NCBI GenBank assembly: GCA_000004985.1
Contig: GG738902.1
Source of the DNA: Naegleria gruberi
Lineage: Eukaryota
DNA length: 64,000 bases
Strand: one strand, 5' to 3'
Positions within the stretch are counted from its first letter, which is position 1; each line of letters starts with the position of its first letter. The position numbers and the translations under genes are program-made. The notes beneath the pieces are model-generated. The model saw only the letters and a program-made list of their open reading frames with translations. It searched no databases and was not told the DNA's origin. Positions 769 through 51,506 of the stretch are shown here, piece by piece.

Positions 769-1086
769 GAGTATTATCAAATTGTATAATAAATAATCAA
801 TATTAAATCCAATAACTATTAAATAATTGTACTCTCGCTTTCCGATAGCCAAATAAATATTTAATTCACCATATGGTGAGAATGACCGATTTCTTATAAT
901 TGTGTTGGCAGTCCTGAGCCCGAGGACACAAGCAGCAAATTAATTTTTTAAGCTTAACGAAATAGCACCTCCTCAATAAACTTAAAACTTCTCACACCGC
1001 CAAGTGCGCTCTGATTCGGACACCTCAAACACCAATGCTTAATTTCTCATTTTGCATTATGATAACAGAGAAAACAAGATAAAAAA

Positions 1087-2268
1087 ATGGAACAATCGGA
1101 AGTGACCATTGCATACTTTAATAATGGCCTTGATGTGCTGAGTATGTTGAGTAGGTGGCAAGTACCAAGCTCGGAATCTGTCATGATTTTCATGTCAAGT
1201 GTTTTGTTTTGCATTGTGGCGACATTGGTTCTTCCTGGAAAGATGGTTCAGGGAGTTCCATTGAAGGATGGATCGAGGATTACATACAAGATTAATGGAT
1301 TATCGGTTGTGTTGCTTGGAACTTTATTTTATGGATTGTTGTGCTATTTCAATTTCCAAATTGGGAATGAGCTTATTTATTCATTGGTTTGTAAGAGTTT
1401 TGGACAATTGCTGGTTACAAGTTTGGTGTTTAGTTTTCTATTGACCAGTTTCTTAAATTTGAGATGTGTCCTTCAACCAGAGAGAAGTAATTACGTTTAT
1501 CCTAAATGGAATATTATCATGAATTTTTGGTGTGGTGTTGAATTGAATCCACACATTTTTGGATTTGAAATTAAGCAATTTTCGTATAGACCTGCATTCT
1601 TAATGATTGGAATTTTGAATTTAAGTTTTGCTTTCGAACAGTTTCGTCTCTATCAAACACTTTCTCAAAATTTCATAACTTTCCAAATCATTAGTTTCCT
1701 CTACTTGATTGATTGTTTCGTATTTGAAGAAGGACTCATTTTCATGTTTGATATTATTGAGGAAAACTTTGGATTCATGTTAGTTTTTGGTGATTACATG
1801 TGGACTCCATTTATTTTCACACTTCAAAATTTATATTTGATTAATGACTTTAATGTTAATCATTTCCAAACAGTTGCCAATATTTTGATATTCATTGTTG
1901 GTTATATCATCTTTAGAGGAGCCAATAATCAAAAAATTACCTTCCGTCAAGATCCAAAACAAGTTTGGCTTGGACTAATCGAACCTAAAGTATTGGAAAC
2001 TTCTCGTGATAGAAAGCTGCTCATTTCTGGATTCTGGGGAATGGCCAGAAAGATTAATTATTTAGGAGATATCCTAGTGGCCATCTCTCAAAGTTTCCCA
2101 TGTCTTCAATGTGGCCATGTCCTTCCATGGATGTATCCAATTTATTTAACACCACTTTTACTTCACAGAGCCATGAGAGATAATGAAAGATGTAAGGAAA
2201 AGTATGGAAAGTTTTGGGATGAATATTGTTCAAAGGTTAGGTGGGTTATGATTCCTGGAATTTATTAG
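1087..2268 (+). CDS. Sterol reductase family protein (ERG4/ERG24/DHCR7-like)
   Basis: 393-aa multi-TM ORF starting at ATG 1087. The C-terminal motifs LLISGFWGMARKINYLGDIL and LLLHRAMRDNERCKEKYGKFWDEYCSKVRWVMIPGIY match the ERG4/ERG24 sterol reductase signature. The N-terminal LPGK...GVPLKDGSRITYKINGL also fits. Confidence 0.8.
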   Translation: MEQSEVTIAYFNNGLDVLSMLSRWQVPSSESVMIFMSSVLFCIVATLVLPGKMVQGVPLKDGSRITYKINGLSVVLLGTLFYGLLCYFNFQIGNELIYSLVCKSFGQLLVTSLVFSFLLTSFLNLRCVLQPERSNYVYPKWNIIMNFWCGVELNPHIFGFEIKQFSYRPAFLMIGILNLSFAFEQFRLYQTLSQNFITFQIISFLYLIDCFVFEEGLIFMFDIIEENFGFMLVFGDYMWTPFIFTLQNLYLINDFNVNHFQTVANILIFIVGYIIFRGANNQKITFRQDPKQVWLGLIEPKVLETSRDRKLLISGFWGMARKINYLGDILVAISQSFPCLQCGHVLPWMYPIYLTPLLLHRAMRDNERCKEKYGKFWDEYCSKVRWVMIPGIY

Positions 2269-3269: not shown

Positions 3270-3278
3270 AAAAAAAAA
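3270..3278 (-). terminator. Pol III T-run terminator (T9) 6 nt downstream of the tRNA-Ala 3' end.
   Basis: The plus strand has A9 at 3270-3278. On the minus strand this follows the tRNA as ...CATCTCCACTTACC then TTTTTTTTT. Confidence 0.7.
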
Positions 3279-3284
3279 GGTAAG

Positions 3285-3357
3285 TGGAGATGCGGGGTAT
3301 CGATCCCCGTACCTCTTCCATGCTAAAGAAGCGCTCTACCATGTGAGCTACATCCCC
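3285..3357 (-). tRNA. tRNA-Ala (anticodon AGC), nuclear pol III type, 73 nt, no encoded CCA.
   Basis: The minus strand reads GGGGATGTAGCTCACATGGTAGAGCGCTTCTTTAGCATGGAAGAGGTACGGGGATCGATACCCCGCATCTCCA. Acceptor stem is 7 bp with the G3:U70 Ala identity pair. D-arm is GCTC/GAGC. Anticodon stem is CTTCT/GGAAG with loop TTAGCAT. T-arm is CGGGG/CCCCG. Discriminator is A. Confidence 0.9.
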
Positions 3358-3632
3358 TTACATTCTTTTCGAAAACAAGTCTTAATACAACGTTGAAGAA
3401 CGATTTTTACCAGCTGGCAAGATCAAGAAATTCAAGTGTTATTTCAACAAATTATTAATAATTGAACTTAGCACATAATATTAATTTTCTCTCGGAACAT
3501 ACCTCAATTTCCGAAGTCAGACACCACTCAAAAAAAAAATGCACATCGGAATTTCACTCCCTTACTTAAATCTCACTCTTCTTTTCCGATGCCAATCAAT
3601 GAAAAAAACAAGAAAACATCAATATCTTCCAG

Positions 3633-4145
3633 ATGGCCAAAAACAAGACTGCCAAATCTCAAACTCCTCAAGTGAAACCTCAAATCCAAAAGATTGAAAA
3701 ACAACATCAACAAATCAATAATGATTTGAATAAGCAATTGAAGAAGGAAAATTCCGAAAAGAAGAAGCAACATCAAACTTCCTCAGATGCTGCTTTAAAG
3801 AATCAAGAGAGCAAGCAAGTGTCTTCAACAGGTTCATCTCCAGAAAATATTAAGACAGAAGTTACTCCTTCCAATAATCAGGCAACATCAGATTTGTCTC
3901 CTTCTTCCGAGAGCAAATCAAATGATAAGAGGGAGAAAACAATGGAAAGAATTAGAAAGGTGGTAAAACAATTGAAGGAAGATCAAAAGAAGGAAGAAAA
4001 GAAATCAAAAGTTTTGAAAACTCCACTTATTGAAGAAATTAACGAATCGGAGGAGAAGGAATGTCAATCTTCTGAATCATCTTCAGAGAAGAAAGAAGAA
4101 AACGAACGAAATGACGCAGAAGCAAGTACTGTTGAATGTAAATAA
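3633..4145 (+). CDS. K/E/S-rich low-complexity protein (170 aa), possibly nuclear or nucleolar.
   Basis: ORF with an ATG start. Highly charged and Ser-rich; no known domain. Confidence 0.4.
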   Translation: MAKNKTAKSQTPQVKPQIQKIEKQHQQINNDLNKQLKKENSEKKKQHQTSSDAALKNQESKQVSSTGSSPENIKTEVTPSNNQATSDLSPSSESKSNDKREKTMERIRKVVKQLKEDQKKEEKKSKVLKTPLIEEINESEEKECQSSESSSEKKEENERNDAEASTVECK

Positions 4146-4183
4146 ATATTGAAAAGTTTAGTTTTGGTTTATTGGTGATCAAT

Positions 4184-5551
4184 TTACAGAATAGAGGTAG
4201 TGATTGGTTTGGAAAGATAGGATGACTTCCTTCGGGTAGGAAGTGTTTTGGAAGCTACAGAATTGAGAAGATTATCATTTTCTTGTTGTAGTTTGAGGAT
4301 TGTCTCTTCACGATCTAATCTCATCTTGTCAGCTTCATTAATGTGTGAAAATAGTTCAGAAATAGTTCGTTCTTGTTTTTTGGCAACTGTTTGAAGGTTG
4401 ATACTATTAGATTGTTCTCTCTTGACTTGTTCCTGAAGTTGCTTGATTTTCTGTTCAAGTTGTTGAATGGTATCTCGTTGTTGCTTTATCATTTCATCCT
4501 CTTCTTGTAGTCTCTTTCTATTCTTGTAAGGGGGCAGCCATTTATCGTGTTCAACCTTGAGCATTTCTTGTAAGAGTTTGTGATGCAGTGATGCAATAGA
4601 ATTTTTGGACTCATCTTCCAAAGATTTATCCACACTTTCAATTTCAGTTTCTCGACTTCCAACAATTTTCACTCTCGATTCACTCAAGAGATTGGCAAGC
4701 TTTTCCTTATCGAGACTGTTTTGAGTCTTTCCATCTTTTTCATGGAGCATGGTATTGAATGAAATGACGAGCCTGGATAAGGTTTGAGCTCTATCATGCC
4801 ATCGTTCTGCCCAATCATCAGAAATTTCCTTCTGTTGAGCCAACTCGTGGTTTCTATTCAAAAGAGTGGCATTCTGGGATTCAATTTGTGCTAAACGAGT
4901 TCTCAGCATTTCATTCTCTGTGTGAACATCTTTTGAAATGTCCTTTTGTGCACACAGATTTGCGTGAAGATAATTATTCGTCCTCACTGAATCCACAACT
5001 ATATGTTCATATTGTTTTTTACATTCTTTCTTTGTTTTGTTCAATTTTCCCTTCAAATGATCAATTTTCTGATCCCTCTTAGCTAAACTCAAATGTACAG
5101 AGAGTGGATCCATATCCAAGCATGCCCTTTCATATCTATCCTTCGTCGTTTCATCCAATGAATAATTACTATCAGAGTCTAACGAAGCAATGGAAGACAA
5201 GGAATTTGATCTTTTCAATCTTCCACCATCTCCACTTCCTCTCCTTAAATTACTAGATGATGATGATGAAAATGATGGCAACAAGTGCCTATAATAATAA
5301 TAAGGCATGTAAGGATAATAACGATTCGGAATGGAAAAGGCATCATCAACAGAACCGTGCCAAAGTACTGAAGAGGACGGAGCTGATGGATAATGATCAT
5401 AGGGATCTGCTCCTGCTGGCCAAACACTTGATGAATAGGGTCCTCCCCAACGATGATAATTGACCATTTTTTTTAAATCCTTTTTATTTACGATTTTTTT
5501 ATTACCAACACTTGACTTCATTTTCTGTAATGAATAACAAGCAGCAACCAA
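4184..5551 (-). CDS. Coiled-coil protein (455 aa), Q/E/K-rich heptad regions.
   Basis: Long minus-strand ORF. The central region, about 200 aa, has a coiled-coil-like composition (QQLEQKIKQLQEQVKREQ...). The N-terminus is S/Y/P-rich. Confidence 0.5.
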   Translation of the reverse strand: MVAACYSLQKMKSSVGNKKIVNKKDLKKMVNYHRWGGPYSSSVWPAGADPYDHYPSAPSSSVLWHGSVDDAFSIPNRYYPYMPYYYYRHLLPSFSSSSSSNLRRGSGDGGRLKRSNSLSSIASLDSDSNYSLDETTKDRYERACLDMDPLSVHLSLAKRDQKIDHLKGKLNKTKKECKKQYEHIVVDSVRTNNYLHANLCAQKDISKDVHTENEMLRTRLAQIESQNATLLNRNHELAQQKEISDDWAERWHDRAQTLSRLVISFNTMLHEKDGKTQNSLDKEKLANLLSESRVKIVGSRETEIESVDKSLEDESKNSIASLHHKLLQEMLKVEHDKWLPPYKNRKRLQEEDEMIKQQRDTIQQLEQKIKQLQEQVKREQSNSINLQTVAKKQERTISELFSHINEADKMRLDREETILKLQQENDNLLNSVASKTLPTRRKSSYLSKPITTSIL

Positions 5552-5895
5552 CGCAAGGATGCAAATTCAGTCATTGCTCTTGTTGCTATTCGCATCAATA
5601 TTTACCACTATTTGCCGTGCCGTTATTAAATTGGCTCAAACAAATACTTGAACCAACAAGGCAAATCTTATTACCATGAACCTCAAATCAAGCAACAAGA
5701 TAACACCTCAACAATTTCATTAATACATAACACCAATTCGGCACTTGCTAGCCTTTTATTTTCACTTGTCTTGTTGTCACTTGGAAGGATAAATTGTGGC
5801 ATAAGTTCTTTTAGAGTAATTAGTCAATTAAATTTCAATTGAACTCTTTAGTCTAAGCCCTTGCAATTAATTGATATCAAAAAAAATCTGCAAAG

Positions 5896-8800
5896 ATGCC
5901 ACTACACCAAACTTTCATCTACACTGGGAAGCTACAACCAGACGAAACTAAACATACAACATTTCCAACAACAAGAACAATATCGCGGAATAGTCGAATT
6001 TCTTTCTCTTCATCAACTATAACCACAAATTTAATTATTTCAATTCTACTGCTAGCATTTATCACCTCTCTCATACAATCTCTATATTATCAGATAGTGT
6101 ATTCATCCAACAATGACAACAAACTTTATAGTCACACATTCTTTGTGAATGCTGCCACTACATGCTATGGTGTTGACAGCACGGATCCTAGTGTTTGCTC
6201 GGGTAATGGAAATTGTACCAGTAAGAATAATTGTGAGTGCAATGATGGATTTAGTGGAAACAAATGTCAAACAGAGACGGTGAAATGTTATGGTGTAGTA
6301 GATACTGATCCTACAGTATGTTCAGGTCATGGAAATTGCTCTAGTAAGAATAATTGTCTGTGTGATTCAGGGTACAGTGGTAACAAGTGTCAAACCTTTG
6401 ATGGTACTAGTTCGATATCGTGTTATGGAATCGATTCGACAGATAGTTCAGTTTGTAATTACAATGGTAATTGCACAGCAACGAATAATTGCGTTTGTAA
6501 TCAAGGATATAGTGGAAATCAGTGCCAAACATTGGATAGCTCTTTTAAATGTTATGGAGTTGACTCTACTGACGTTTCTGTTTGTAATGGAAATGGAAAT
6601 TGTACATCAACTAATAATTGTGTCTGCAAATCTGGTTACACTGGGAATCAATGTCAAAATGAAGATAGTTCATTTAAATGCTACGGGGTTGACTCGACAG
6701 ATATCTCTGTTTGTAGCGGAAATGGAAATTGTACAAGCTCAAACAATTGCGAATGCAAATCTGGTTATACTGGTAATCAATGTCAATCAATTGATAGCTC
6801 TTTCAAGTGTTATGGTGTTGATTCGATAGATATCTCTGTTTGCAATGGAAATGGTAATTGCACTAGTTCAAATAATTGTGTTTGTAAATCTGGTTACAGT
6901 GGAAATCAATGTCAAACCTATGATGGCGGTAATAGTGGTTCATTTAAATGCTATGGAGTTGATTCTAGTGATATCTCTGTTTGTAGTGGAAACGGTAACT
7001 GTACTTCTGCTAATAATTGTGAATGTAAGGCAGGTTATAGCGGCAATCAATGCCAAACCTTCTCTACCTCTTTTAAGTGTTATGGTGTTGATTCGACAGA
7101 TAGTTCAGTTTGTAATGGAAATGGCAATTGCACCTCCTCTAATAATTGCGAATGTAAATCTGGATACACAGGAAACCAATGTCAATCAATTGATAGCTCG
7201 TTCAAGTGTTATGGTGTTGATTCGATGGATGTCTCTGTTTGCAATGGAAATGGTAATTGCACTAGTTCAAACAACTGTGTTTGTAAATCTGGTTACAGTG
7301 GGAATCAATGTCAAAACAATGATGGCAGTAGCACCATTAAATGTTATGGTATTGATTCGACTGACCCATCAGTTTGCTCAGGTCATGGTATCTGTTCCTC
7401 AACCAACGACTGCCAATGTGAAAATGGTTACAGTGGAAATAAGTGTCAAACCTTTGCAAACGAAACATCTACTTTCAAATGTTATGGTGTAGATTCTTCG
7501 GATCCTACTGTTTGCTCTGGTAATGGAAACTGTACATCCACCAACAATTGCCAATGCCAATCAGGATTCAGTGGAAATAAGTGTCAAACTACAGTTAATT
7601 ATTGCTTTGGTTATGATGAAAATGATAACAATGTTTGTGGTGGTCCAGATCGAGGAAAATGTACATCTAACGATGTTTGTGAATGTAAGGGAAGCTACGT
7701 TGGTTACGATTGTGGTGCTTTTGTTTCAGACAAATCACTCATCAAAATAACCTCAAAATATTCAAAGATTCTAAGCACCAATACTGACATTAATTTCATA
7801 ACAATTAGTATTCCAAAGCTCACTAACAGCTACAAGGGAATTGAGAATAGACTCAAGAGTACTTTGGTGATTTTCAGCAGTAATGTTACTATTGATTATT
7901 CCACTACTGGAATGATTGAACAGTTTCAATTGTATAAGAACATGACACTTGGCGTCTACTCTCTCAATTTAACCATTGTTGATACTACTTATAACATTCA
8001 AGTTGCTGCTACTGTTGAGAGCTCAATATTTTCTATACTGACTCTTGAACAAACTACTCAAAGTGTGGATACCTTGACAGCAAAAGAAATTGCACAAGTT
8101 ACAAAGCAATTGAACCAAATTACAAACCAACAACAATTTATTTCTACTGTGGTTTCTACTTTGAAAGAGAATGTTAATAATTACACAATTGATGATGGTT
8201 TAGATTTGACTTCGTCACTATTAGATATTTCCAATGTCAAGTTGGATACTAAATCTAAACTGGGAATATCTGAAACCCTAAAATCATATGCTCAAAATAT
8301 GATCGAAAAGTTTGACAATTTCACAACAGAACAAGTCAAACCAGTTGCAATTAACATCGTTTCTGTTGCCTCAAATATTTTAAATCAATCTATATTTACT
8401 GAACCATCATCTAAATTTGTGGTTATCGGTAATTCTATTCAATCCGTTGAAAAGACACTTTCCCTTGTTACGATTGTTAATCCAACAGAAAATTTATCAA
8501 TTGAAACTTCGATGATTAAGGTTCTTCTCATTTCAAAATCAGAATACAAGAATTTACATACTATAGATAAGGATTATACTCTTAATCTTCCAGAATTGGG
8601 GTTTGAATATTCGTTTGGTTTGGTAAAATATGAAAATTACTTGACAGAAGATTTGCAAAACACAAGTTCAATTTCTGACATTTTGCAAGTGAGACCAATG
8701 TTGAATGGTGTTTTTAGCCCTCTCAGACATTTATCCACTCCATTCAATTTGACTTTCTCTATCAAACATTTCGGTGCGCCACCAAGTAATGAAACAGTTG

Positions 8801-10590
8801 CAACTGTGGTTTGCAAATATTGGAACGAAACAACTAATGAATGGTTGAGTGATGGATGTAGCACCACAATCCTTTCGGCTGATCAAGTCTTGTGCTCATG
8901 CTATCACACAACAAAGTTTTCCTCCTTTGTGGATTATTCTAAAGTGAATTTCAGTACCAGAACTATTCAGACATCACTAGCCGTTGCCAACATCATTTTC
9001 AGTTCCTTATTTATTGCTGCAATTCTAGTTATCCTTGTGTTGTTGGTAATTTTCAGAAAATCCCAACCTGTAAAATCAAGATTTATTACTCCCTACTTTG
9101 CATTAACTGCCCTATTGATTGATAATTTGGTTTCTGGTATTATTGCCAAAGGACTTTTACTTGGAAATTACTCATTCAATGTAGTTATCATGACAAGTGT
9201 CTGTGCAGTAATTTCAAGTGCACTATTGGCAAGTGCAGTCTGGTGCTATTTTGTCATGTCCATTCGTTTCATCATCCACAGATACTTTTACGAATACATG
9301 ATGAGAGTGGTTGAGAACAGACAACAAAAGAATGCCGTTTTGGTTAAGATTTTGAACATTTTCAAACAGGATAAGCTTCTCATCTTGTCTAGTTTGATGA
9401 TTGGTTTTGGTTTTGTCTTGTACTTTACCATTTTTATCATTTTGAAGGGAGTGGATGCTTTCTCTGATTCTCAATTCACTTACTCAACAACCATTTCATT
9501 GTTTATTATTTTACTTTTCATGACGGCGATGGTAATTGCTATTTACATTTTAGACTTTTATTTGGACTTTACAAACAAACAATTAAGAGATGAATTAGTT
9601 GACATATCTGATGAAATAATGTTATTAGAAAGTGGAGATTCAAGCTTGAACAATCTCAATTCTAGAAAATCCCTTAAAATTACAAAACCTTTCGTTGATT
9701 TGTTGGAACAATCCCATATTAAGAAGTTTTTCAATTTATTCTACTCAAATGACAAGTTAATGTTCAGACCTGAGGCCATTTTCTTCATGTTAGGTATTTC
9801 ATTCTTTACCATTTCTTACTGCTTGGGATTTGCCAGTGTCCATGACCGTTACGTATCAAATCCAACTTCTACACAAATTCAAACAGTCGACATTCTCGAT
9901 GCAGTTGCATTCCTTTTTGAAGTCTTGATGACCGTTTGTTTGATTACTAGCTTTGGAGGTTTCTCTGTTGGTTGGGCCATTTTCACTGAAACCAGAAAGA
10001 GAAGTTGCTTCAAGGAATCCAGACAAGCTTCTGTCAATGCTGAGAGAATCAAATCTCAAAGACTTGAAAGCTACGAGGATCTTACCAACAGGTTTGATGT
10101 TTACAAGCTCATGAAGAACAAGTACTTGTTAAGACTCTTCCAACAATATGCCAAGTTGGAAATGTCACTAGAAAATTATATTGTTTGGATGCGAATTGAA
10201 CATGCCAGATCTAAATTTGCCAAATTGTGGGTTGATATGGATGGAGAAGCAGCATCTATCGAGGAATGGAATTCACTCTTGGAGGAATTACTTGGATGGC
10301 TAAAGGATCACTTGGATCCAGATGCAGAACTCGCTCTCAATGTCAGCCACCACTCTGTTAAACAATTCATTGCTGCTGTGCATATGCTAGAAAGCAAAAT
10401 TGACACCATTTCAACTAAGAACAGAGATTCCCTATTCAATTTGAAAGAAATGGTTAGACAAGCCATTGATTCATTAATCATCGATGTTCTCTACAATTTA
10501 ACAGACACCTATTCAAGATTTATCATCACGGATGAATACAAAGCTCTCAAAGAAGTAGAATCTGTTACCGAAATGAATACTTTCAAATAA
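5896..10590 (+). CDS. Adhesion-GPCR-like receptor (1564 aa): N-terminal signal/anchor, about 17 tandem EGF-like repeats, GPS/GAIN-like motif, 7TM region, C-terminal RGS domain.
   Basis: EGF units follow CYGVDSTDxSVCSGNGNCTSxNNCxCxxGYSGNxCQ. GPS-like motif is CKYWNETTNEWLSDGCSTTILSADQVLCSCYHTTKFSSF. Seven hydrophobic helices follow. The C-terminal YEDLTNRFDVYKLMKNKYLLRLFQQYAKLEMSLENYIVWMRIEHA ... LTDTYSRFIITDEYKAL resembles the RGS fold (EFSEENLEFW ... DSYPRFLKS). Continuous ORF, no intron seen. Confidence 0.75.
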   Translation: MPLHQTFIYTGKLQPDETKHTTFPTTRTISRNSRISFSSSTITTNLIISILLLAFITSLIQSLYYQIVYSSNNDNKLYSHTFFVNAATTCYGVDSTDPSVCSGNGNCTSKNNCECNDGFSGNKCQTETVKCYGVVDTDPTVCSGHGNCSSKNNCLCDSGYSGNKCQTFDGTSSISCYGIDSTDSSVCNYNGNCTATNNCVCNQGYSGNQCQTLDSSFKCYGVDSTDVSVCNGNGNCTSTNNCVCKSGYTGNQCQNEDSSFKCYGVDSTDISVCSGNGNCTSSNNCECKSGYTGNQCQSIDSSFKCYGVDSIDISVCNGNGNCTSSNNCVCKSGYSGNQCQTYDGGNSGSFKCYGVDSSDISVCSGNGNCTSANNCECKAGYSGNQCQTFSTSFKCYGVDSTDSSVCNGNGNCTSSNNCECKSGYTGNQCQSIDSSFKCYGVDSMDVSVCNGNGNCTSSNNCVCKSGYSGNQCQNNDGSSTIKCYGIDSTDPSVCSGHGICSSTNDCQCENGYSGNKCQTFANETSTFKCYGVDSSDPTVCSGNGNCTSTNNCQCQSGFSGNKCQTTVNYCFGYDENDNNVCGGPDRGKCTSNDVCECKGSYVGYDCGAFVSDKSLIKITSKYSKILSTNTDINFITISIPKLTNSYKGIENRLKSTLVIFSSNVTIDYSTTGMIEQFQLYKNMTLGVYSLNLTIVDTTYNIQVAATVESSIFSILTLEQTTQSVDTLTAKEIAQVTKQLNQITNQQQFISTVVSTLKENVNNYTIDDGLDLTSSLLDISNVKLDTKSKLGISETLKSYAQNMIEKFDNFTTEQVKPVAINIVSVASNILNQSIFTEPSSKFVVIGNSIQSVEKTLSLVTIVNPTENLSIETSMIKVLLISKSEYKNLHTIDKDYTLNLPELGFEYSFGLVKYENYLTEDLQNTSSISDILQVRPMLNGVFSPLRHLSTPFNLTFSIKHFGAPPSNETVATVVCKYWNETTNEWLSDGCSTTILSADQVLCSCYHTTKFSSFVDYSKVNFSTRTIQTSLAVANIIFSSLFIAAILVILVLLVIFRKSQPVKSRFITPYFALTALLIDNLVSGIIAKGLLLGNYSFNVVIMTSVCAVISSALLASAVWCYFVMSIRFIIHRYFYEYMMRVVENRQQKNAVLVKILNIFKQDKLLILSSLMIGFGFVLYFTIFIILKGVDAFSDSQFTYSTTISLFIILLFMTAMVIAIYILDFYLDFTNKQLRDELVDISDEIMLLESGDSSLNNLNSRKSLKITKPFVDLLEQSHIKKFFNLFYSNDKLMFRPEAIFFMLGISFFTISYCLGFASVHDRYVSNPTSTQIQTVDILDAVAFLFEVLMTVCLITSFGGFSVGWAIFTETRKRSCFKESRQASVNAERIKSQRLESYEDLTNRFDVYKLMKNKYLLRLFQQYAKLEMSLENYIVWMRIEHARSKFAKLWVDMDGEAASIEEWNSLLEELLGWLKDHLDPDAELALNVSHHSVKQFIAAVHMLESKIDTISTKNRDSLFNLKEMVRQAIDSLIIDVLYNLTDTYSRFIITDEYKALKEVESVTEMNTFK
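6160..7720 (+). repeat. In-frame tandem array of about 150-bp units encoding the EGF-like repeats; accounts for the overlapping ORF-track artefacts at 6329..6829 and 6845..7492.
   Basis: Near-identical stretches recur every roughly 150 nt, for example tgttatggtgttgattcgacagat... and ggaaatggaaattgtac. Confidence 0.8.
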
Positions 10591-10672
10591 AATTTATTCA
10601 GGAAGCACGTATGATTAAGGCAAAGTTTTATTTAAATCCACGTATACTTTACTTCTTTATAAAATGAGATAA

Positions 10673-11910
10673 TTATCTTTTAATGGGCGGGCGTGTCTGT
10701 AAATCACTGATTGAATAATCCTGGAATATTTTCAACATGCGCTCTCTATTCATCAATTTTGTAGTGTGTGTAATTATTAAATCTCCTCTTTTACAAACGA
10801 ATTCGAATAGATCATCCCCAATATAATCCTCATGAATATAGTGAATGTAAAGAAGAATCTCAGGATACTTTGAAAAAAAGGGTGCAACTTCATAATATTC
10901 ATAACATGTACTCACTGAGACATCATACCGTAAAGTTAATTCCAAATATTTCAATCTTTCGGTTCTAGGAATATAGCGGATACACTTTGGTACAATTGAA
11001 AGAATTTGAGGTAGGAATGTAGCTTGTTCCTTGACAAAGCGAAATGTTGAGGGATCTCTTTTCACACAATTCATTACAATTTCCTGATAATTTTCAATGG
11101 CAGGATCAACATATTGGAGGGTGAGAGGATCCAACTCAAGTGCTGGTATTACAATTTCTGGATTCTTTTTGAAAGCTGCAGTCATAAATTGAAGATTGTG
11201 TGGCAGTTTTCTAATGGCCAATAGAGCCATTTCTAAATCAGATTTGAATTCAAAATAAATGTATCTGAATAAATGTGGATTAATTTCTAGAGCCATCTTG
11301 GTTAATTCTCTATCTTTTCTCAATTCCAATTTGATAAATGAAAAGGAAGCTGGATTTAATCTCATATTAATCAATGATTCTTTTACAATTTGCATATCCT
11401 GAAGAGATTCATCAAATTTTTCAAATGAAACTCCATAATTGAGCATTTCCATCATTAATTCTCTATCATTTCTATAAGAATGATTCGTTGGAAAATGATG
11501 TGCTTCCCTCTTTTTTTATCCAATTTCAGAATTTTCAAAAGATATTCAATCGATGAATCGTGACTCAAGGCATAAATTACAAATTCTCTCATTTTAAACA
11601 ATGATTCATCTAAAAGTTTTGCAATTTTTTGTGGATTTCCTTTTCCACTTTGAATTATTTGCATCATGAGTTCTTTATCTTTTCTAAAAGATTTTGGAAT
11701 TAGCTCAAGACATTCTGGATCAATTTCAAATGCCATTAACATTGATTCTCTTGTTTCTTTCCAATTATCTGGGAAATATGAAAATTTTGGATTGATTTGT
11801 TGTCCACTTTTGGCAGCCATCTTGCCTAATTCAAAATCCTTTTCCAAATTATTGACATTTGGCACATATCCATATTTGCTAGCCACCAATTCAAGAATTT
11901 CTCTATCCAT
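10673..11910 (-). pseudogene. DUF4116-repeat protein gene interrupted by a frameshift near 11455-11520; either a pseudogene or a sequencing indel in a homopolymer.
   Basis: Two abutting ORFs (11455..11910 and 10673..11455) both carry the 24-26-aa repeats (IDPECLELIPKSFRKDKELMMQII and LEINPHLFRYIYFEFKSDLEMALLAI). The downstream frame stays open upstream through ...SYRNDRELMMEMLNYG, which is itself a repeat unit. No GT...AG intron is available there. An A7/T7 run lies at about 11510-11516. Confidence 0.55.
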
Positions 11911-12248
11911 ACACCAATTAGACTCTTTAAATAATGAATACAGACAATCAGAATCTCTATTCGAAGAGAGTTTCTAATAGCTATTCTATGTTCGACCACG
12001 ACACTCAAGTATATCTTGAATTTCCATTTTTTTAGAACATTCAATCAATATTTCTTTATCAACACTGCGCAACCAACCAACTCTTTTCAAATACTCCCAA
12101 TAATTTGTTTCCTTTCTCAACTGGAACAAAAGCACGCTACATGATTAACAGATCGAAGTAAAAACTAGTTTGTTCGTTGCTTAGTTGGTTATTTTCACTT
12201 TTGTATTAAGACTAATATTTAATTGAATAGATTTCTTAATGAATGTTA

Positions 12249-12307
12249 GGGGATGTAGCTCACATGGTAGAGCGCTTCTTTAGCATGGAAGAGGTACGGG
12301 GATCGAT
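12249..12307 (+). pseudogene. Truncated tRNA-Ala(AGC) copy: the 5' 59 nt are identical to the intact gene at 3285..3357, then the sequence diverges and runs straight into a T6 tract.
   Basis: GGGGATGTAGCTCACATGGTAGAGCGCTTCTTTAGCATGGAAGAGGTACGGGGATCGAT matches the intact copy. It is followed by CTTTTTTGTACGC rather than ACCCCGCATCTCCA, so the 3' T-stem and acceptor strand are missing. Upstream flanks share TTGTATTAAGACT...GAATGT(A/T)AG. Confidence 0.75.
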
Positions 12308-12785
12308 CTTTTTTGTACGCTTCTATCTTTTTCAATGGAACAAGTTGAAATTACCTTCAATTATTTAAAATAGAATCTTTTTGTAGTATTATTTGAATAA
12401 CATTCTTAGCTAAGAACCATTAGATGACAAAAAACCAAAAACCGCCCAGCAAAACCGTTACACCATTATAAATGGTTTTTCAAAAAAAAACACCATCAAG
12501 AATTTATTCTCACCTGCAATGAAGTAACAACGACACACAGGTGCTAGTTTCAAATCCACATCAAATTACCTGTCTAGATGCCCTTTGCCAATTCTCTTTT
12601 ACCAAGAGCAAAGTGAAAGTCCCCAAAAGATGTTTCCACCATAATACAAAAACAAGTAACACATATTTTCATATATGAATAATATCTATTGCAAGATATT
12701 ATAATCACCATCAAACTATTTGACAAATAAAATTAGCCGGCTGGTTTGCCATCATAATATCCAAGTTGGATTTCAAACAACAAAA

Positions 12786-15700
12786 ATGTCCAAATTGCTT
12801 CTCCTACTATTACTTTCTCTTTTATTTGCAACAACAACAACACGAATAATCAGTGCCTACATCCTGCTACCACAACAATCAGCATCATCTTCACTTTATA
12901 ATAACCAAGATGATAATTCATCATCAACAACTATAATAACATCATCCTCATCATCATCAAATGTATTACTTTCTGCTACAGCAGCAGTGGTGGTGGAGAG
13001 GAATAAAACATTCTATATCAATGAAGCGAATGGCACACAAAGTGGTGATTGTTCCGAGCCTTCAAAAGCCTGCTCCTCCATCCTCTATTTAACTGGTTTG
13101 ATTTCACGATCGACCGATTATTTAACAAACAAGTTTTTAATCTATCTAATAGGAGATTGTATTAAATATGAACCAATAACATTCAGTACCATGACCTTGA
13201 CGAGTACTTTTATATTTCTCTCATACAATGATTCAAATAATACAAATAATAGTAGTGGCAGTACAGTTAATAGAGTGACATTGGCAAATAAGAGATGGTT
13301 AGCTCAATTTTCAAGTATGGGATTTGAAAATTTAATTGTGGACAAGATGGAAATATTTCCAGGAGATGGATTTTCATTTGTGAATTGTCTGGTTAGAGGG
13401 ATGAGTTTGAAGAGAGGATTTACTTGGATGATTGTGAAGAATACAGTGATTGAGGATTCAATTTTTGGAGATGATAGTGTCACGAGTTATATGAGGAATA
13501 AGGACGATAGACCAGTGATTGAAATTACACAGAGTAGAATTGTTCGTTCAAAGATGAATTTAGAATCAATTACTAATGTTATGAACTGTAATTTTACCGA
13601 ATCTAATATGACGATTAGCAATTCAGTATCTTCAACATTGCAGAATATTGCTGTTAACAATTCTAGAATTTTATTAAGAGTTGTCTTTTATATTAATGTG
13701 AATTATTTTGATTGCTCCAATAGTAGTTCATCATTTGCAATTGATGGAGCCAATGAGGTTAAAATTGTGAGGTTCAATTTTGAGAATTGTAATAATTATG
13801 GAGAAAGTACTCTCTTCTCTACTGTTAGGACTTTAAATATTGATCACATGAATTATATTAGAAATAAGGGTGCACTTACGTTTTTAGGAGTTTACCAAAC
13901 TAATATGGGATCATCTAATTTTATTGAGAATAGAAATGGTGCCATTCAAGTGGAAAATCATGGCGACTCACCAACATATTTTGTCGTGCAAGGTTCCAAG
14001 TTTTTGAGAAATAGCAGATTATCAAATGGTGGAGCTATTTATATGGATTCAGCTTTATCAAATTTCCATACCTATTCTAGTGTATTTGAAGATAATATGG
14101 CATTGAATGGAGGTGCTGTATATGTATTAGCATCCATTAGAAATACCTATACCAATACTGTTTTTAACAGAAATAAGGTTACAGACTGTGCTAAATGCGG
14201 TAATGGTGGAGCTCTTTATTCCAACACAAACTCTCTAGAGTGGAGATCCTCCAATTTTACAAATAATGTAGCCATTAAGGGAGGAGCTGTTTTTATTGAT
14301 AGAGTACCATCTATTACCTTTGAAACTCAGGATATTGTGTTTCAAAATAATGAAGCTCAATTTGGATCAGACTTTTTCTTTGAAAAGTATGAAGTTGACA
14401 AGTTCCCTGTTGATAAATATGCAAACTCTACTGCCAGCTCAATTATGAAGAGTTTCAAAGTACTCATGAATAATATTGAGATAGACTCAGGAAAGAACTT
14501 TGATGTCTATCCAGGTGAAACGATACAATTACAATATTCCTTTGAAGACATATTTGGAAATAGAATTGAATCTTCTCATAATCAACCTGTCATATCCTCT
14601 GATGCAAATATTACTCTATACACAGTTTTTACCTCAAATACGGACTTTAAGTTGCTCTTTGATTTGAATAATAAGGGAGAGATATCTACAACTGTTGAAT
14701 TGGTCATTGCCTATTCAGAATTTACTGTAATTAGTGAATTGCATCTCACCATTGCTCCATGTCCACAGTATCATCGTTTACAACAGGTCAATTTTAATGG
14801 ATACAAATGTGTCAAGCAAGATGTATTGCTTATTATCATTTCCTCTGTACTTTCATTTATTTCCCTGCTTATAATAATACCATTCATTTCATTCATTCTT
14901 TACAGGTTTGCACTCAAAAAGTTGTTTATATTCTACAAGAGAGAACGAGAGGAGAGAAGAATTGAAAAGCAATTGAAAGATTACCTCTTTAGAAATATTA
15001 ATGCCAATGATGAGAAACAAGGTCTCCTCAAATCTTTGACACATTCTAATATGATAATTCCAATCAGTGACATTCAAATTGTTTCCAAAATAGGAGAAGG
15101 ATCGAATGGTGTAGTATATTTGGGGCGATGGAAACAAACTGACGTTGCCCTCAAAAGTATCAAACATGATTCTACCGATATTGATATTGAAAATCAATTA
15201 GAAGAATTTGAACATGAAGCTTCCTTATTAGCAAGCTTACGTCATCCCAATGTCATTTCATTTTATGGTATTAGTTTCGGTCTCAATGTACAATACATGG
15301 TAGTTGAATATTCAGTTAATGGAAGTTTGGACAAGGCAATTCATCAATCCAAGATTAAGAAGAAGGTTCTCAGTTTTAGAGATAAGATTAATATTGTTCT
15401 TGGAATTTCAAAAGGTTTAAATTACTTGCATTCATTGAGACCACAAATGATTGTTCACAGGTATGTATTTGAATAGTCTTATTGAGATTAATACTGAAAT
15501 TATCAAATAATTTTAGAGATTTGAAACCTGGAAATATTCTATTGGATAGTAATTTTGAGCCAAAGGTAACAGATTTTGGAATGAGTCGATTTATTGGAAC
15601 TGAAAATTCATCCATGACCATGAATGTTGGTACATTACGATATTGTGCACCTGAGATATTCAACAATGACAAACACGATGCCAATCACATGGTCGATGTC

Positions 15701-16096
15701 TACTCATTCTCAATGATTATGTATGAATTATTATTTGAGGATGCTCCCTTCTCTGAAAATACTAAAAAGATGAAGAATAGAAGTTCAGGAATCTCTACAT
15801 CTGACTCCTCATCCGTAACAAGTGGAAGTGGTTCAAATAATATTAATGAAATGTACAGTATTCCAGTTCGAGTAGTGAGAGGAGAACGCCCAAGCATTCC
15901 CTTCTCGAATGAAAATGAATTGGAAATGTGGGCTGATGAGTTTATTACTGATAATGCCTCTCTAAACTACAAAGTACAAGCTCTTGAACAATATATTGAA
16001 TTGATGAAACAGTGTTGGGCTCAAGCTCCAAATCAAAGACCATCCTTTGGTCAAATTTCGGAAACCCTTTTGAATATTAGCATTTCTTTCAGATAA
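12786..16096 (+). CDS. Receptor-like TKL protein kinase. Exons 12786..15460 and 15517..16096, intron 15461..15516 (GTATGT...TTTTAG, 56 nt). Signal peptide, beta-helix-like ectodomain, one TM, kinase domain.
   Basis: Starts MSKLLLLLLLSLLFA. The ectodomain has recurring NGGAIY, NGGAVYV, GNGGALYS and KGGAVFID motifs. TM segment is VLLIIISSVLSFISLLIIIPFISFILY. Kinase motifs are IGEGSNGVVYLG...ALK and, across the splice, HR|DLKPGNILL...DFGMSR. The ORF-track stop after HRYVFE lies in the intron. Confidence 0.8.
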
Positions 16097-47493: not shown

Positions 47494-49381
47494 TCAGGTA
47501 AATTCCAATTTGAACTTTTTTAGGAATAAATTGTTGTAATTCAACAGTTTCGTTTCCAAGGCTCTCCATGATTTTTCTTAATAATTCATAAATTTCAATA
47601 ATTTCACTTAATTCATCCTTATTTAACAATTGAATGTCAGTTAAATATTCTTGATTCAAATATGTTTTGATAAATTCATCCAATACTATTAACTTCTCTT
47701 CCAATTCTTGAATATATTTGGTCAATTTCATTAAAAAATTCTCCGATTTAATGCTTTCTACCATACAAGTCATGTTTAACTTTAGTTCATCAACTTGTGA
47801 ACTTTCTTGTTCAAGTTTCAATTCATTAGCATGTTCAAAACAATTCTTTAACTTTTCACAAATTTCCAAATATTCTTTTTGAAATTCATTTTCTAATACA
47901 GTACATAAAACCTTAATTGCATTGATTTGTGAATTGGATTGAGTTTCTTCTTGTCTTTCAATATTTGTTTCTTGTGTTTCGTCTTGTTCTTTAATATTTT
48001 CGTCTTGTTTTTCGAGAGTTTCTTGATTTTCATCATGTTTTTCCTCTTGTTGTTCGAGAGTTTCTTGGTTTTCATCATGTTTTTCAAGTGGTTCTTGTTT
48101 TTCAAGAATTTCTTTCTTAATTTTATCTTTTTCAACTTTTTCATTCAATTCCTTCTTAATTTTGGAAATTTCCTTTCCGTTGACTTTCCATAAATTGTTA
48201 ATTTTAATATTTGGTGATTGAAGTAATAATTTAACAATTTCTAAACGTCCTTTTTCACATGCAATATGTAATGGAGACTAATAAATATTTAAAAATGTTG
48301 TAATTATTATTACTTACTTCCTATTATGGTAATGTTTAAAATAAGTATTAAATACAAACCATCTAAATAATAATGTAAAATATTTTAAATATTTAATTCT
48401 TACATGCTACGAGGAAATAATTAATAAATTAATTATTAATTTACATACTTCCTAAAATAGATAAATAATTTAATTGGTTAATTACTCACTTTCTAATAAC
48501 AAAGTTGGCAAATTAATTTCAATATTTAATAATACTAACTTCCTATTAAAAAAATTAATATTAAATATTAAAAATACTAACAATCTAAAAAAATGTAAAT
48601 ATTTAAAATTGTTTAAAAACTTACAACTCTCTAAAACAAATATACACGTAATTTAATTAGTAGAGACTTACTTGCTAATAAAAATATTAATTTAAGATTA
48701 TATTACTTAAATTACATACTTCCTAATAAGGAACTTGTTCATAAATAAAGAATTTAATACTTACTCCCTAATAATATTAACATTAAATAGTTATAAGTGA
48801 AATACTAACTTTCTAATAAATTATTTTATAAATAACTAAGTATTAAATACTTACATGCTAATAAAATGCTAATTTAATACAAAATTACCAAATTTAGAAT
48901 ACTTACATACTAAAAATAGTATTATTTTTATATTTTTTAATATTAAATTACTTACAGTCTGAAAATATTATTATTACAATGCTAGCAACACTTACAAACT
49001 AATAGCATTAAATATAAATAATTAATTATTCAATTCCTTACATACTAATTAATTATTTAGTATTTTACAATATTTCCTTAAATACTTACTTTCTACAATC
49101 ATACCCATTTAGATCTTATTAAACAATTGATATTCTACTCACATACTACTCAATTTTAAATATTTATAATGTTAATATTAAATAGTACTTACTCCCTTAT
49201 TCACATCAAGTCCTCCACAATTCAACAATAACTTGACAATTTCCAAATGTCCCCTCTCACAAGCCATGTACAACAATGTCTTATTCCGATCAGATTCATT
49301 TACCTTCGTTGGCTTGAAATACTTTTTAAACTCGGCAACGTTTCCACTATTTGCAGCATCTACAAGATGAGGAGAGAGCAT
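47477..49381 (-). CDS. Ankyrin-repeat plus acidic coiled-coil protein. First exon 49381..49193, a 915-nt microexon/mini-intron array at 49192..48278, and a downstream exon 48277..47477.
   Basis: Upstream exon reads ...TLLYMACERGHLEIVKLLLNCGGLDVNKG. Downstream exon reads SPLHIACEKGRLEIVKLLLQSPNIKINNLWKVNGKEISKIKKELNEKVEKDK..., in frame with ORF 47477..48148, then an E/K-rich helix. Confidence 0.65.
48278..49192 (-). other. Array of 20 tandem mini-introns (about 37-50 nt) separated by 19 microexons of 3 nt (one alternatively 6 nt).
   Basis: The minus strand reads GGA|GTAAGTAC...GAGTAG|TAT|GTGAGTAG...TTGTAG|AAA|GTAAGTAT...TAATTAG|TAT|GTAAGG...TATTAG|TTT|GTAAGTG...TTTTCAG|ACT|GTAAGTAA...TTTTTAG|TAT|GTAAGTAT...TTATTAG|CAT|GTAAGTAT...TTATTAG|AAA|GTTAGTAT...TTATTAG|GGA|GTAAGTAT...TTATTAG|GAA|GTATGTAA...TTATTAG|CAA|GTAAGTCT...TTTTAG|AGA|GTTGTAAGT...TTTTTAG|ATT|GTTAGTAT...TTAATAG|GAA|GTTAGTAT...TTATTAG|AAA|GTGAGTAA...TTTTAG|GAA|GTATGTAA...CTCGTAG|CAT|GTAAGA...TTATTTAG|ATG|GTTTGTAT...CATAATAG|GAA|GTAAGTAA...TTATTAG|TCTCCA. 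None of the 3-nt units is a stop codon. Confidence 0.7.
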
Positions 49382-49532
49382 TTTGATGTTTGGTGTTGTT
49401 TTGTTTTTTTTGAATGAAATTTTCTTTTTATCACCATATTAAGGCCTTAATGAAAGTTCATTATGGTTTGGGAACTTGTAATTTCTAGAAGTTGCGTTTG
49501 GAGTTTAATTAGAATGTTTAAAAATTGAAGTA

Positions 49533-51506
49533 TTAATCAGAATCACCAGAATATGATTCATAATCATCGGTTGAAATCATTTCTTGTTCGCGTGGTAAAC
49601 CATTAATGTAATCGGCATAATCTACTCGCAAATATTTGACTAAATGGAAAAATTGAGATCGTAGCATGGTGTTACCTTGAACGAACTCTCGTGCTTCGAT
49701 TTCTACACTATTACAGTTAATTTCTAGTAAACGGATAGCTAGCTCAATTATTCCTGTTTGTATCAGGGCAAGATTCCTCTTATTTTCAATGTCAAAATTA
49801 AGAACTTTCAGTGTTTTAGTTTTGGCTAAAGTAAAGTTGACTGCCTTATCAATATCCAATAGAGCTATTAAACCTGCAAAAATGTAAATGGAACGTTTCT
49901 CCAACATTGCTCGCATTAAAATTTCTACTAGCTTTTCAAGATTAGGTGGCTTAATTCCTTTCACAATATAGTCACAAACTAAATTGATGAGGCAGTTATT
50001 ATTTAGTGGAATCCAAGAGTTTTTGATAGCCAAGCTATAAATAAATTCCATATTTGATACCGCATTGCTTATAGGTTCAATAGCGTCATACATTTGATAT
50101 GAAACAAGTACTCTTGCTGGTCCAGTTAGTTCATTATTTGATCTGAAATAGAAGAGTAATAAATCCGAAATGACTTTCCTTATGTTATCATCCAAAAGTT
50201 GTTTCTCTGAAAGCAGTTGGTGTATGCGTAAACATAGAACCAATCGACCAGCCATTGTTTCTGGAAGTACGGTTTTCCAAGTTATAAATCCAGGTATTAA
50301 AGATTTAACAGCTAGCACCATCCTTTCCGTCATTCCTAATATTATTAAAATGGTTTCTATGAATTTGAAATACTCAGATTCAAGTGGATATTTTACAATA
50401 TTAGAAATTATACTTGTCAATTCGTCATCCTTAATCATCTTGTTAGTTAATTCCATTGTAGCACACAAAAAATTAAGAAATGGTTCAACATCCTCAGGTG
50501 TTTCCACTTTAAATTCAATCGTACCGTTGTAAATTACTTCCAAACATGACTGATCGAGCATAATTTGGTCCAAATGATATGGTAAACCTAGTAATAAAAT
50601 TTTTCTAATGGAATATGGAGCATTTTCGAGAATCTCTTTGATATAGAAATTTCCGAATGTTTCATCGCTGAAAAGGGCACATTTCATGGCTATTTCTCGT
50701 AAATCTAACAACTCTGTAGCATCCCCAATAATTCTAAAATAATGTGCAATGAATGCACTAAATTTGAGTTTTTCAACAACTTTCAAAGCTTTTCTTAATC
50801 TTTGATTGTGTTCTTCATTTCGTTCCAAATCACTAATAGCATCAAACTCTTGATTTAGAAAAGCAAATGTTGGAAACGGACAACTATGAGCATAGATTCG
50901 GAGTATGTCTATTAAATTCTCATCTGGTTCTACGTCAATTCTTTCATATAATAGTTGGAATAAGTTTTGCAACATTGGTTCATTTTTGGTTGTACGAACA
51001 ATTCTAAGGTCTGCATACTTTGAAAGTAATTTTTTTTCTCTTGTTGTCCATTTTGGACACATTGCCTTGTCATTCCAATATTTTTCATTATAATGTGACA
51101 AGAAATCAATTAACTTGATGTAAAAAACATGAGAAAGAGTAGCACCTTCAGTATTCATACACGCCCAGACAGCATGAAAATACCAATACGGTACCACATG
51201 TTCATACTTAGTATTTGGAAACAGAAAATTGTCCCTTGTCTCCTTATAGTCATCCAAAAATCGATAAACCAACTGGCCAGCACCACCAAGGTTGATCACT
51301 TTAAATAAATTTGTAATATCATCATCGTCACTCCAAGAAATTTCCGTAAATGTTTCTTCATCTTCCATCATGTCATTTTGAACAATATCACACAACAGTT
51401 CATAGCTTGTGTAAATGTCTCCCCCAGGCAGCTCATCGGACAGTTGTGACTTGTGCAAATGTTCCTTCAGAGCATCACGGTTAGGTCCATCACGAAGTTT
51501 GAACAT
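49533..51506 (-). CDS. Hypothetical protein (657 aa), helical; no recognised domain.
   Basis: Uninterrupted ORF with an ATG start and a D/E-rich C-terminus. Confidence 0.5.
   Translation of the reverse strand: MFKLRDGPNRDALKEHLHKSQLSDELPGGDIYTSYELLCDIVQNDMMEDEETFTEISWSDDDDITNLFKVINLGGAGQLVYRFLDDYKETRDNFLFPNTKYEHVVPYWYFHAVWACMNTEGATLSHVFYIKLIDFLSHYNEKYWNDKAMCPKWTTREKKLLSKYADLRIVRTTKNEPMLQNLFQLLYERIDVEPDENLIDILRIYAHSCPFPTFAFLNQEFDAISDLERNEEHNQRLRKALKVVEKLKFSAFIAHYFRIIGDATELLDLREIAMKCALFSDETFGNFYIKEILENAPYSIRKILLLGLPYHLDQIMLDQSCLEVIYNGTIEFKVETPEDVEPFLNFLCATMELTNKMIKDDELTSIISNIVKYPLESEYFKFIETILIILGMTERMVLAVKSLIPGFITWKTVLPETMAGRLVLCLRIHQLLSEKQLLDDNIRKVISDLLLFYFRSNNELTGPARVLVSYQMYDAIEPISNAVSNMEFIYSLAIKNSWIPLNNNCLINLVCDYIVKGIKPPNLEKLVEILMRAMLEKRSIYIFAGLIALLDIDKAVNFTLAKTKTLKVLNFDIENKRNLALIQTGIIELAIRLLEINCNSVEIEAREFVQGNTMLRSQFFHLVKYLRVDYADYINGLPREQEMISTDDYESYSGDSD

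Follow-up and report, generated by a model that had tools for sequence, protein, structure and literature searches.

A 3′-truncated, inverted copy of a tRNA-Ala(AGC) gene in Naegleria gruberi, probably a pseudogene that arose by local duplication

Partial or rearranged tRNA genes have been described in several settings, including the tRNA pseudogenes of eukaryotic nuclear genomes, tRNA-derived short interspersed nuclear elements (SINEs), partial tRNA genes (tDNAs) at yeast chromatin boundaries, insertions at tRNA genes, and split tRNA genes. Here we describe a locus in a 64,000-nt stretch of contig GG738902.1 of Naegleria gruberi (assembly GCA_000004985.1; hereinafter referred to as the window), in which an intact tRNA-Ala(AGC) gene at 3285-3357 is accompanied, 8.9 kb away, by an inverted copy at 12249-12307 that contains only the 5′ part of the tRNA. 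The copy is likely to be an ordinary 3′-truncated pseudogene, an inverted local paralogue of the intact gene, which was probably disabled by a deletion of approximately 19 bp.

The copy resembled eukaryotic nuclear tRNA pseudogenes in its near-identity to a tRNA gene of the same genome, its lack of a cloverleaf, its sub-threshold covariance score, and its intergenic position, but it was cleanly truncated rather than point-mutated, and it was located 9 kb from an intact paralogue sharing its 5′ flank. With tRNA-derived SINEs and small RNAs (rodent ID and BC1, which derive from tRNA-Ala; B2 and MIR), it had in common a tRNA-Ala 5′ module, internal RNA polymerase III (pol III) boxes, and adjoining non-tRNA sequence with a T-run. 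In contrast to these elements, it carried no tRNA-unrelated body, no A-rich or LINE-like tail, and no target-site duplication, it was not present in multiple copies in the window, and its homology included untranscribed upstream DNA. Yeast extra TFIIIC (ETC) sites and partial tDNA boundaries are similar in that a tDNA remnant with most of a B box lies between open reading frames (ORFs) whose 5′ ends face each other; ETC sites, however, have a strong extended B box, whereas the Naegleria copy has lost C61 and C62. In insertions at tRNA genes, such as prokaryotic islands, the TRE and DGLT-A elements of Dictyostelium, and yeast Ty3, a tRNA gene and a partial tRNA can likewise flank a multi-kb block. 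Prokaryotic islands differ in showing direct repeats of the 3′ part near an integrase gene, whereas an inverted 5′ part and no mobile genes were found here, and TRE and Ty3 differ in that they insert beside tRNA genes without duplicating them. Split tRNA genes, as in Nanoarchaeum equitans and Caldivirga, also encode the 5′ portion of a tRNA separately, but theirs is complemented by a matching 3′ half with complementary leaders, and no such half was present in the window. Unlike tRNA halves (tiRNAs), which are produced by cleavage of the mature tRNA in the anticodon loop, the copy breaks between positions 59 and 60 in the T-loop.

The only tRNA called by ARAGORN in the window was tRNA-Ala(AGC) at 3284-3357 on the minus strand. 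The same gene scored 53.6 bits against the Rfam tRNA model (RF00005) at 3285-3357, which identified it as a functional tRNA (cut-off, 29 bits), and its minimum-free-energy fold was the cloverleaf (-30.8 kcal/mol). Direct reading of the sequence revealed G3:U70, the alanine identity pair. A run of nine T residues followed the gene, in accordance with the first-pass annotation, which had described an intact tRNA-Ala followed by a T-run; only 12 runs of this length or longer were found in the window when both strands were counted.

The first-pass annotation had also proposed that a 59-nt 5′ part of this tRNA is duplicated in opposite orientation at 12249-12307, and the match proved to be exact. 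The copy and the intact gene were identical at all 59 of the positions 1-59, which made it an unambiguous homologue of a genuine tRNA gene from this genome; by chance, a 27-mer of the tRNA would be expected to have 0 matches in the window. The copy retained the 5′ strand of the acceptor stem, the D-arm with the A box, the anticodon arm, the variable loop, the 5′ strand of the T-stem, and six of the seven T-loop bases. The last 14 bases (positions 60-73), which comprise the 3′ strands of the T-stem and the acceptor stem and include U70, were lost. The break was located in the T-loop, where the gene reads GATCGAT-A-CCCCG and the copy reads GATCGAT-C-TTTTTT-GTACGC (junction sequence, GGTACGGGGATCGATCTTTTTTGTACGC; DNA downstream of the break, GTACGCTTCTATC). 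Position 60 is therefore A in the gene and C (12308) in the copy. The copy had previously been thought to diverge directly into six T residues (T6); the T6 was present, but this single C separated it from the shared part. The intact A box and the T-run after the copy, both of which had been pointed out in the same annotation, were present in the sequence.

With the Rfam tRNA model under permissive settings, the copy scored 22 bits at 12249-12315, compared with a gathering score of 29 bits, and its acceptor stem was unpaired (GGGGAUG opposite UCUUUUUU). ARAGORN, run on the whole window, did not call it. The missing tRNA 3′ piece, ACCCCGCATCTCCA, was found within the 64 kb only in the intact gene, and a search for it at three mismatches gave two hits, which corresponded to the chance level (1.35 expected). 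The possibility that a different 3′ half completes the tRNA, with the gene either split or interrupted by an intron, was thus rejected on the basis of the score, the unpaired acceptor stem, and the absence of a 3′ piece from the window; folding of the copy as a complete tRNA, which the first-pass annotation had envisaged as a different outcome, was not observed. Because the 3′ strands of the T-stem and the acceptor stem and U70 are lost, the product of the copy is unable to fold as a tRNA, to be processed, or to be charged. A permissive Rfam scan of the window gave no additional tRNA-like hit, and other partial tRNAs or repeats were not detected in the window. In the 41-Mb genome of N. gruberi, 924 tRNAscan-SE hits have been reported, corresponding to 883 tRNA genes and 41 pseudogenes (PMC2888827, supplement 2). 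Since the copy falls under tRNAscan-type thresholds, it is probably not among these 41 pseudogenes. The coordinates of the two loci and of the neighboring features are listed in Table 1.

Table 1. Features of the two tRNA-Ala(AGC) loci and of the surrounding region; positions refer to the 64,000-nt window.
Feature	Position	Strand	Evidence or remark
3′-truncated tRNA-Ala(AGC) copy, tRNA positions 1-59	12249..12307	+	59/59 identity; Rfam 22 bits; no ARAGORN call
tRNA-Ala(AGC) gene, 73 nt, intact	3285..3357	-	ARAGORN; Rfam RF00005; T-loop ATCGATA; G3:U70 pair
T9, presumed pol III terminator of intact gene	3270..3278	-	6 nt (CTTACC) past gene 3′ end
5′ flank of intact gene, homologous to copy flank	3358..3397	-	GAATGTAA at -8..-1; TTGTATTAAGACT at -33..-21
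5′ flank of copy	12194..12248	+	TTCACTTTTGTATTAAGACT (17/20), 15-nt extra segment, proximal flank (14/20) ending GAATGTTA
Junction C + T6, probable own pol III terminator of copy	12308..12314	+	Via putative ~19-bp deletion
Second T-run TCTATCTTTTT, alternative candidate for original terminator	12322..12332	+	In register with intact-gene terminator in ungapped alignment
ERG4/ERG24 ORF	1087-2268		
ORFs without Pfam match	3633-4145 and 4184-5551		Pfam
1564-aa ORF with EGF repeats and GPS	5896-10590	+	Pfam
Two abutting DUF4116 ORFs, different frames, same strand	10673-11455 and 11455-11910	-	Pfam
Receptor-like protein kinase gene	12787-16096	+	ATG at 12787; hydrophobic, signal-peptide-like N-terminus

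The homology between the two loci extended into their 5′ flanks, which were identical at 31 of 40 positions and differed by one 15-nt indel (distal part, 17/20; proximal part, 14/20). Among the 20-mers of the window, the distal value was reached only by the query itself and its true partner, and the proximal value was equalled by just 32 of 127,962. The two short upstream motifs that had been noticed in both copies in the first pass were both real. With up to one mismatch, TTGTATTAAGACT was found in the whole window only at 3378-3390 on the minus strand and 12201-12213 on the plus strand, and GAATGT[A/T]A abutted tRNA nucleotide 1 at both loci, the final G previously assigned to this motif being tRNA nucleotide 1 itself. 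The 5′ homology stopped at about -60, nothing else was repeated around either locus, and similarity between the 3′ flanks was not significant (p ~0.2).

DNA located 20-55 nt upstream of a tRNA start is outside the pol III transcript. Because the homologous flank includes such DNA, it points to DNA-level duplication of a small unit rather than retroposition, and indicates that the two copies are DNA-level paralogues originating from a small inverted duplication, not retrocopies. In addition, approximately 900 tDNAs are spread over approximately 46 anticodon families, so that chance alone is unlikely to place two tRNA-Ala(AGC)-derived sequences within 9 kb of each other, and this favors a local duplication. 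An origin by fold-back or template switching at the palindrome GATCGATC was also considered and was unsupported; the 5′ ends of the two copies point toward each other and are separated by 8.9 kb of unrelated DNA.

The motif TTGTATTAAGACT contained TATTAA at about -30 to -25 of the intact gene, which is where TATA-like upstream elements of pol III genes are located in some eukaryotes. Judging from its sequence and position, the motif could be a candidate upstream promoter element of Naegleria tRNA genes.

The T6 at the break is not a matter of chance, because a T6 starts within 0-2 nt of a random position at only 0.3% of positions. Removal of the 19 nt ACCCCGCATCTCCACTTAC from the architecture of the intact gene gave GATCGAT followed by CTTTTTTTTT, which matched the GATCGAT followed by CTTTTTT in the copy. 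The T-run is probably most simply accounted for by a deletion of approximately 19 bp, through which the T-loop became joined to the pol III terminator of the gene itself. Downstream of the break, a direct near-repeat was identified (TCGATCTTTTT at 12303-12313 and TCTATCTTTTT at 12322-12332; 19 nt apart). In the intact gene, the trailer and the tRNA 3′ part that the copy lacks together have the same length as this spacing. The near-repeat may be a mutational trace or a coincidence. Whether a deletion or a replacement of sequence occurred, the lesion is local, and the DNA downstream of it is probably still part of the old tRNA locus.

These features can be combined into a putative sequence of events. 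First, a small unit comprising the tRNA gene, approximately 60 nt of its 5′ flank, and probably also the terminator would have been duplicated at the DNA level, so that another tRNA-Ala gene came to lie in inverted orientation at a distance of 8.9 kb. Both copies would then have been working genes, while their flanks drifted to a divergence of approximately 22% and acquired one 15-nt indel. Positions 60-73 of the second copy would have been lost later, most simply by the deletion of approximately 19 bp or, alternatively, by replacement of a 19-nt block, and any residual pol III transcript of the copy would be a short, unstable by-product. The flank distance of 0.225 corresponds to approximately 0.13 substitutions per site per lineage (Jukes-Cantor). 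If the 59 nt had been unconstrained over the full time since the duplication, approximately 7.9 substitutions would be expected, and none was seen; zero substitutions are compatible, at the 5% level, with a loss of constraint in the last ~38% of this time. In the simplest history, the copy would thus have worked as a gene for a long time and been truncated fairly recently, and because such a recent truncation is compatible with zero substitutions, selection on the 59-nt fragment is not needed to explain its identity.

Several points weigh against this interpretation as a locally duplicated and recently truncated pseudogene. A perfect stretch of 59 nt beside flanks with approximately 22% divergence also fits selection acting on the fragment, or gene conversion with other tRNA-Ala genes as the source. 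The upstream motifs found at both loci could be promoter elements common to the whole tRNA family rather than evidence of local duplication, and further copies of the truncated form, which was searched for within 64 kb, could be present in other parts of the genome. As for the lesion, the in-register second T-run fits the replacement of a 19-nt block without a change in length equally well, no microhomology was visible at the putative deletion junction, and, with no significant similarity between the 3′ flanks (p ~0.2), the main support for the deletion model is where the T-run is located.

Among the alternatives, an originally intact second tRNA-Ala gene may instead have been broken within the T-loop by a larger rearrangement, namely an inversion, a translocation, or a large deletion. 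What lies to the right of 12307 would then have been brought in from another place, and the 3′ piece would either no longer exist or be located outside the window. The abrupt end of homology at 59/60 and the lack of significant similarity between the 3′ flanks are consistent with such an event, as are the inverted arrangement of the copies, which is a geometry permitting inversions, and the absence of synteny with the relatives compared. However, a T6 within 1 nt of the break would have a 0.3% chance in unrelated joined sequence, the in-register second T-run suggests that the downstream DNA is still the original tRNA locus, and neither an orphan 3′ piece in the 64 kb nor a repeat or duplication boundary nearby was detected; we consider a larger rearrangement unlikely. 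A chimeric join within repeated tRNA sequence in the draft N. gruberi assembly could be imagined because tRNA-Ala is a multi-copy gene in a genome with approximately 900 tDNAs. A 73-nt repeat is, however, far below the length of sequencing reads, and neither a diverged yet homologous 5′ flank of its own nor the terminator-like T-run found at the junction would be expected of a random chimera, so that an assembly artefact is the least credible of the explanations considered. The copy could also have been retained as a pol III or TFIIIC element, giving either a tRNA-5′-like RNA of approximately 65 nt ending at T6 or an ETC-like TFIIIC boundary between the DUF4116 and kinase genes. A tRNA-half-like pol III unit had been one of the two readings in the first-pass annotation, neither of which is favored here. 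The intact A box (TAGCTCACATGG), the retention of 9 of 11 B-box positions, the adjoining T6, and the location within the 810 bp separating two oppositely oriented ORFs would suit such an element, which would also explain 59 identical nucleotides beside flanks with ~22% divergence. Against it, the B box reads GGATCGATCTT instead of the GGATCGATACC of the gene because C61 and C62 are lost, the 15-nt indel moves the TATA-like TATTAA from about -30 to about -45, selection is not required for the 59/59 identity, and no second example was found in the window. Further, the predicted 64-nt RNA was no more stable than shuffled sequences (z = -1.29). A potential hairpin in the tail (GAAG-GUACGG / UUGUAC-CUUC) was likewise discarded, as 28-37% of shuffled tails folded equally well, and so did 8-25% of tails taken at random from the window. 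Weak pol III transcription of the copy is plausible, a function of it is unsupported, and retention as such an element seems even less likely than a rearrangement.

The first-pass annotation had suggested that the two tRNA sequences are the footprint of a tRNA-targeted insertion bracketing the block between them, and the copy could alternatively be regarded as a tRNA-derived retroposon (SINE). tRNA genes are known integration targets, tRNA-Ala is the source of rodent ID and BC1, and a T-run follows the partial copy, all of which would suit a footprint of a 9-kb mobile element or a SINE. An integrase-type insertion into a tRNA gene, however, results in a direct repeat of the 3′ part, and no duplication of the tRNA accompanies the insertion of tRNA-targeted retroelements in Dictyostelium and yeast. 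An insertion footprint was unsupported, because the repeat found here is the 5′ part in inverted orientation, and the diverged 5′ flank common to both copies argues for a duplicated tRNA gene rather than a target-site scar. Genes encoding integrase, transposase, or reverse transcriptase were missing from the block according to Pfam (main scan, E ≤0.001), and a search at E ≤1, which covered the three flanking ORFs as well as the C-terminal portion of the large ORF, likewise gave no mobile-element domains. Terminal repeats beyond the tDNA unit of approximately 100 nt were not present, and the GC content of the block was uniform (0.33-0.36), with no shift in composition. A SINE was further contradicted by the homology covering approximately 55 nt upstream of the transcribed region, which would be absent from a retrocopy, as well as by the absence of a poly(A) or LINE-like tail and of a flanking target-site duplication. 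The only flanking direct repeat (12219-12238 and 12389-12408; 80% identity) lay inside the homologous 5′ flank and did not bracket the unit. Six A residues on the opposite strand were considered as the poly(A) tail of a retro-insertion and rejected, being too short and accompanied by neither a 3′ remnant nor a target-site duplication. In addition, a SINE-like family was looked for within the 64 kb, and no copy beyond the two loci was found. An insertion footprint or SINE is therefore very improbable, and the 8.9-kb block is ordinary host DNA rather than a mobile insert.

Besides two ORFs without a Pfam match, the block at 3358-12248 contained genes for a protein with EGF repeats and a GPCR proteolysis site (GPS) and for DUF4116 proteins. 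The large ORF (5896-10590) included 11-12 tandem 129-nt EGF-coding repeats (6155-7700), a DUF7949 domain, and a GPS (E = 3.7e-8), together with a weak RGS match (E = 0.0022) under the Pfam cut-off. Of the EGF-7TM-RGS label that had been given to this protein, the EGF part was borne out by the tandem repeats, and the RGS part was backed only weakly. The predicted product would represent an adhesion-GPCR-like architecture in a heterolobosean. The two abutting DUF4116 ORFs may be one gene with an intron or a frameshift, or two tandem paralogues. The copy was located approximately 480 nt upstream of the ATG of the kinase gene, in the 810-bp region that separates this gene from the oppositely oriented DUF4116 gene. 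The kinase was encoded by two ORFs (to 15476 and from 15482), which were joined by a GT..AG intron of approximately 56 nt lying inside the catalytic-loop motif, between HR and DLKPGN. A homology search with the kinase ORF returned N. lovaniensis kinases with 30% identity, and the N. gruberi protein itself was not returned. The protein encoded by the ERG4/ERG24 ORF showed 100% identity to its N. gruberi entry at NCBI, which identifies the window as nuclear DNA of this species. The GC content of the window was approximately 0.33, with a minimum of 0.25 at 48001-50000, a region located mostly between ORFs.

The locus was compared with the loci of ERG4 orthologues in N. lovaniensis (L001), Willaertia magna (L002), and two environmental relatives (L003 and L004). 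Only ERG4 was common to these loci and the window, and no tRNA-Ala was found at any of the four. The upstream motifs were not shared with the tRNA genes of Willaertia or with the tRNA gene of L004. In L004, a tRNA-Ile(AAT) gene (L004:73-145) was located upstream of the ERG4 orthologue, which was 72% identical to the N. gruberi protein. N. clarki is a close relative of N. gruberi (PMC11702301). Metagenomes were scanned with a 28-mer extending from the anticodon loop to the T-loop (positions 32-59), which gave 0 hits, and with the 5′ 27-mer, which gave 22 loci; all of these were tRNA-Ala(TGC/CGC) with anticodon stems unlike that of the Naegleria gene. The upstream motifs were found at none of the 22 loci, and no Naegleria sequence was returned by the scans. 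The 5′ flanks at the metagenome tRNA-Ala loci were often common to the copies of a tRNA gene.

Three of the metagenome loci, which belong to unrelated AT-rich eukaryotic contigs, contained other arrangements of tRNA-Ala sequences. In L009, an anticodon-arm fragment of tRNA-Ala directly followed an intact tRNA-Ala gene (1041-1067, minus strand). In L020, a tRNA-Ala(CGC) gene (L020:3722-3760) was interrupted at the canonical intron site, after position 37. L014 contained two identical tRNA-Ala(CGC) genes (L014:820-2091), which were 1,245 nt apart and whose 5′ flanks were also identical.

The truncated tRNA-Ala carries little weight in itself; it adds a further decayed copy to a tRNA gene family that is larger than usual for a protist genome of 41 Mb. 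Transcription of the copy, or binding of TFIIIC to it, would make it a rare case among protists of an exapted tDNA remnant. The pair of loci suggests that Naegleria tRNA genes can duplicate as very small DNA units, consisting of approximately 60 nt of 5′ flank and the gene. Moreover, clean truncations of this kind fall under the thresholds of tRNA finders, and published counts of tRNA pseudogenes are thus probably too low.

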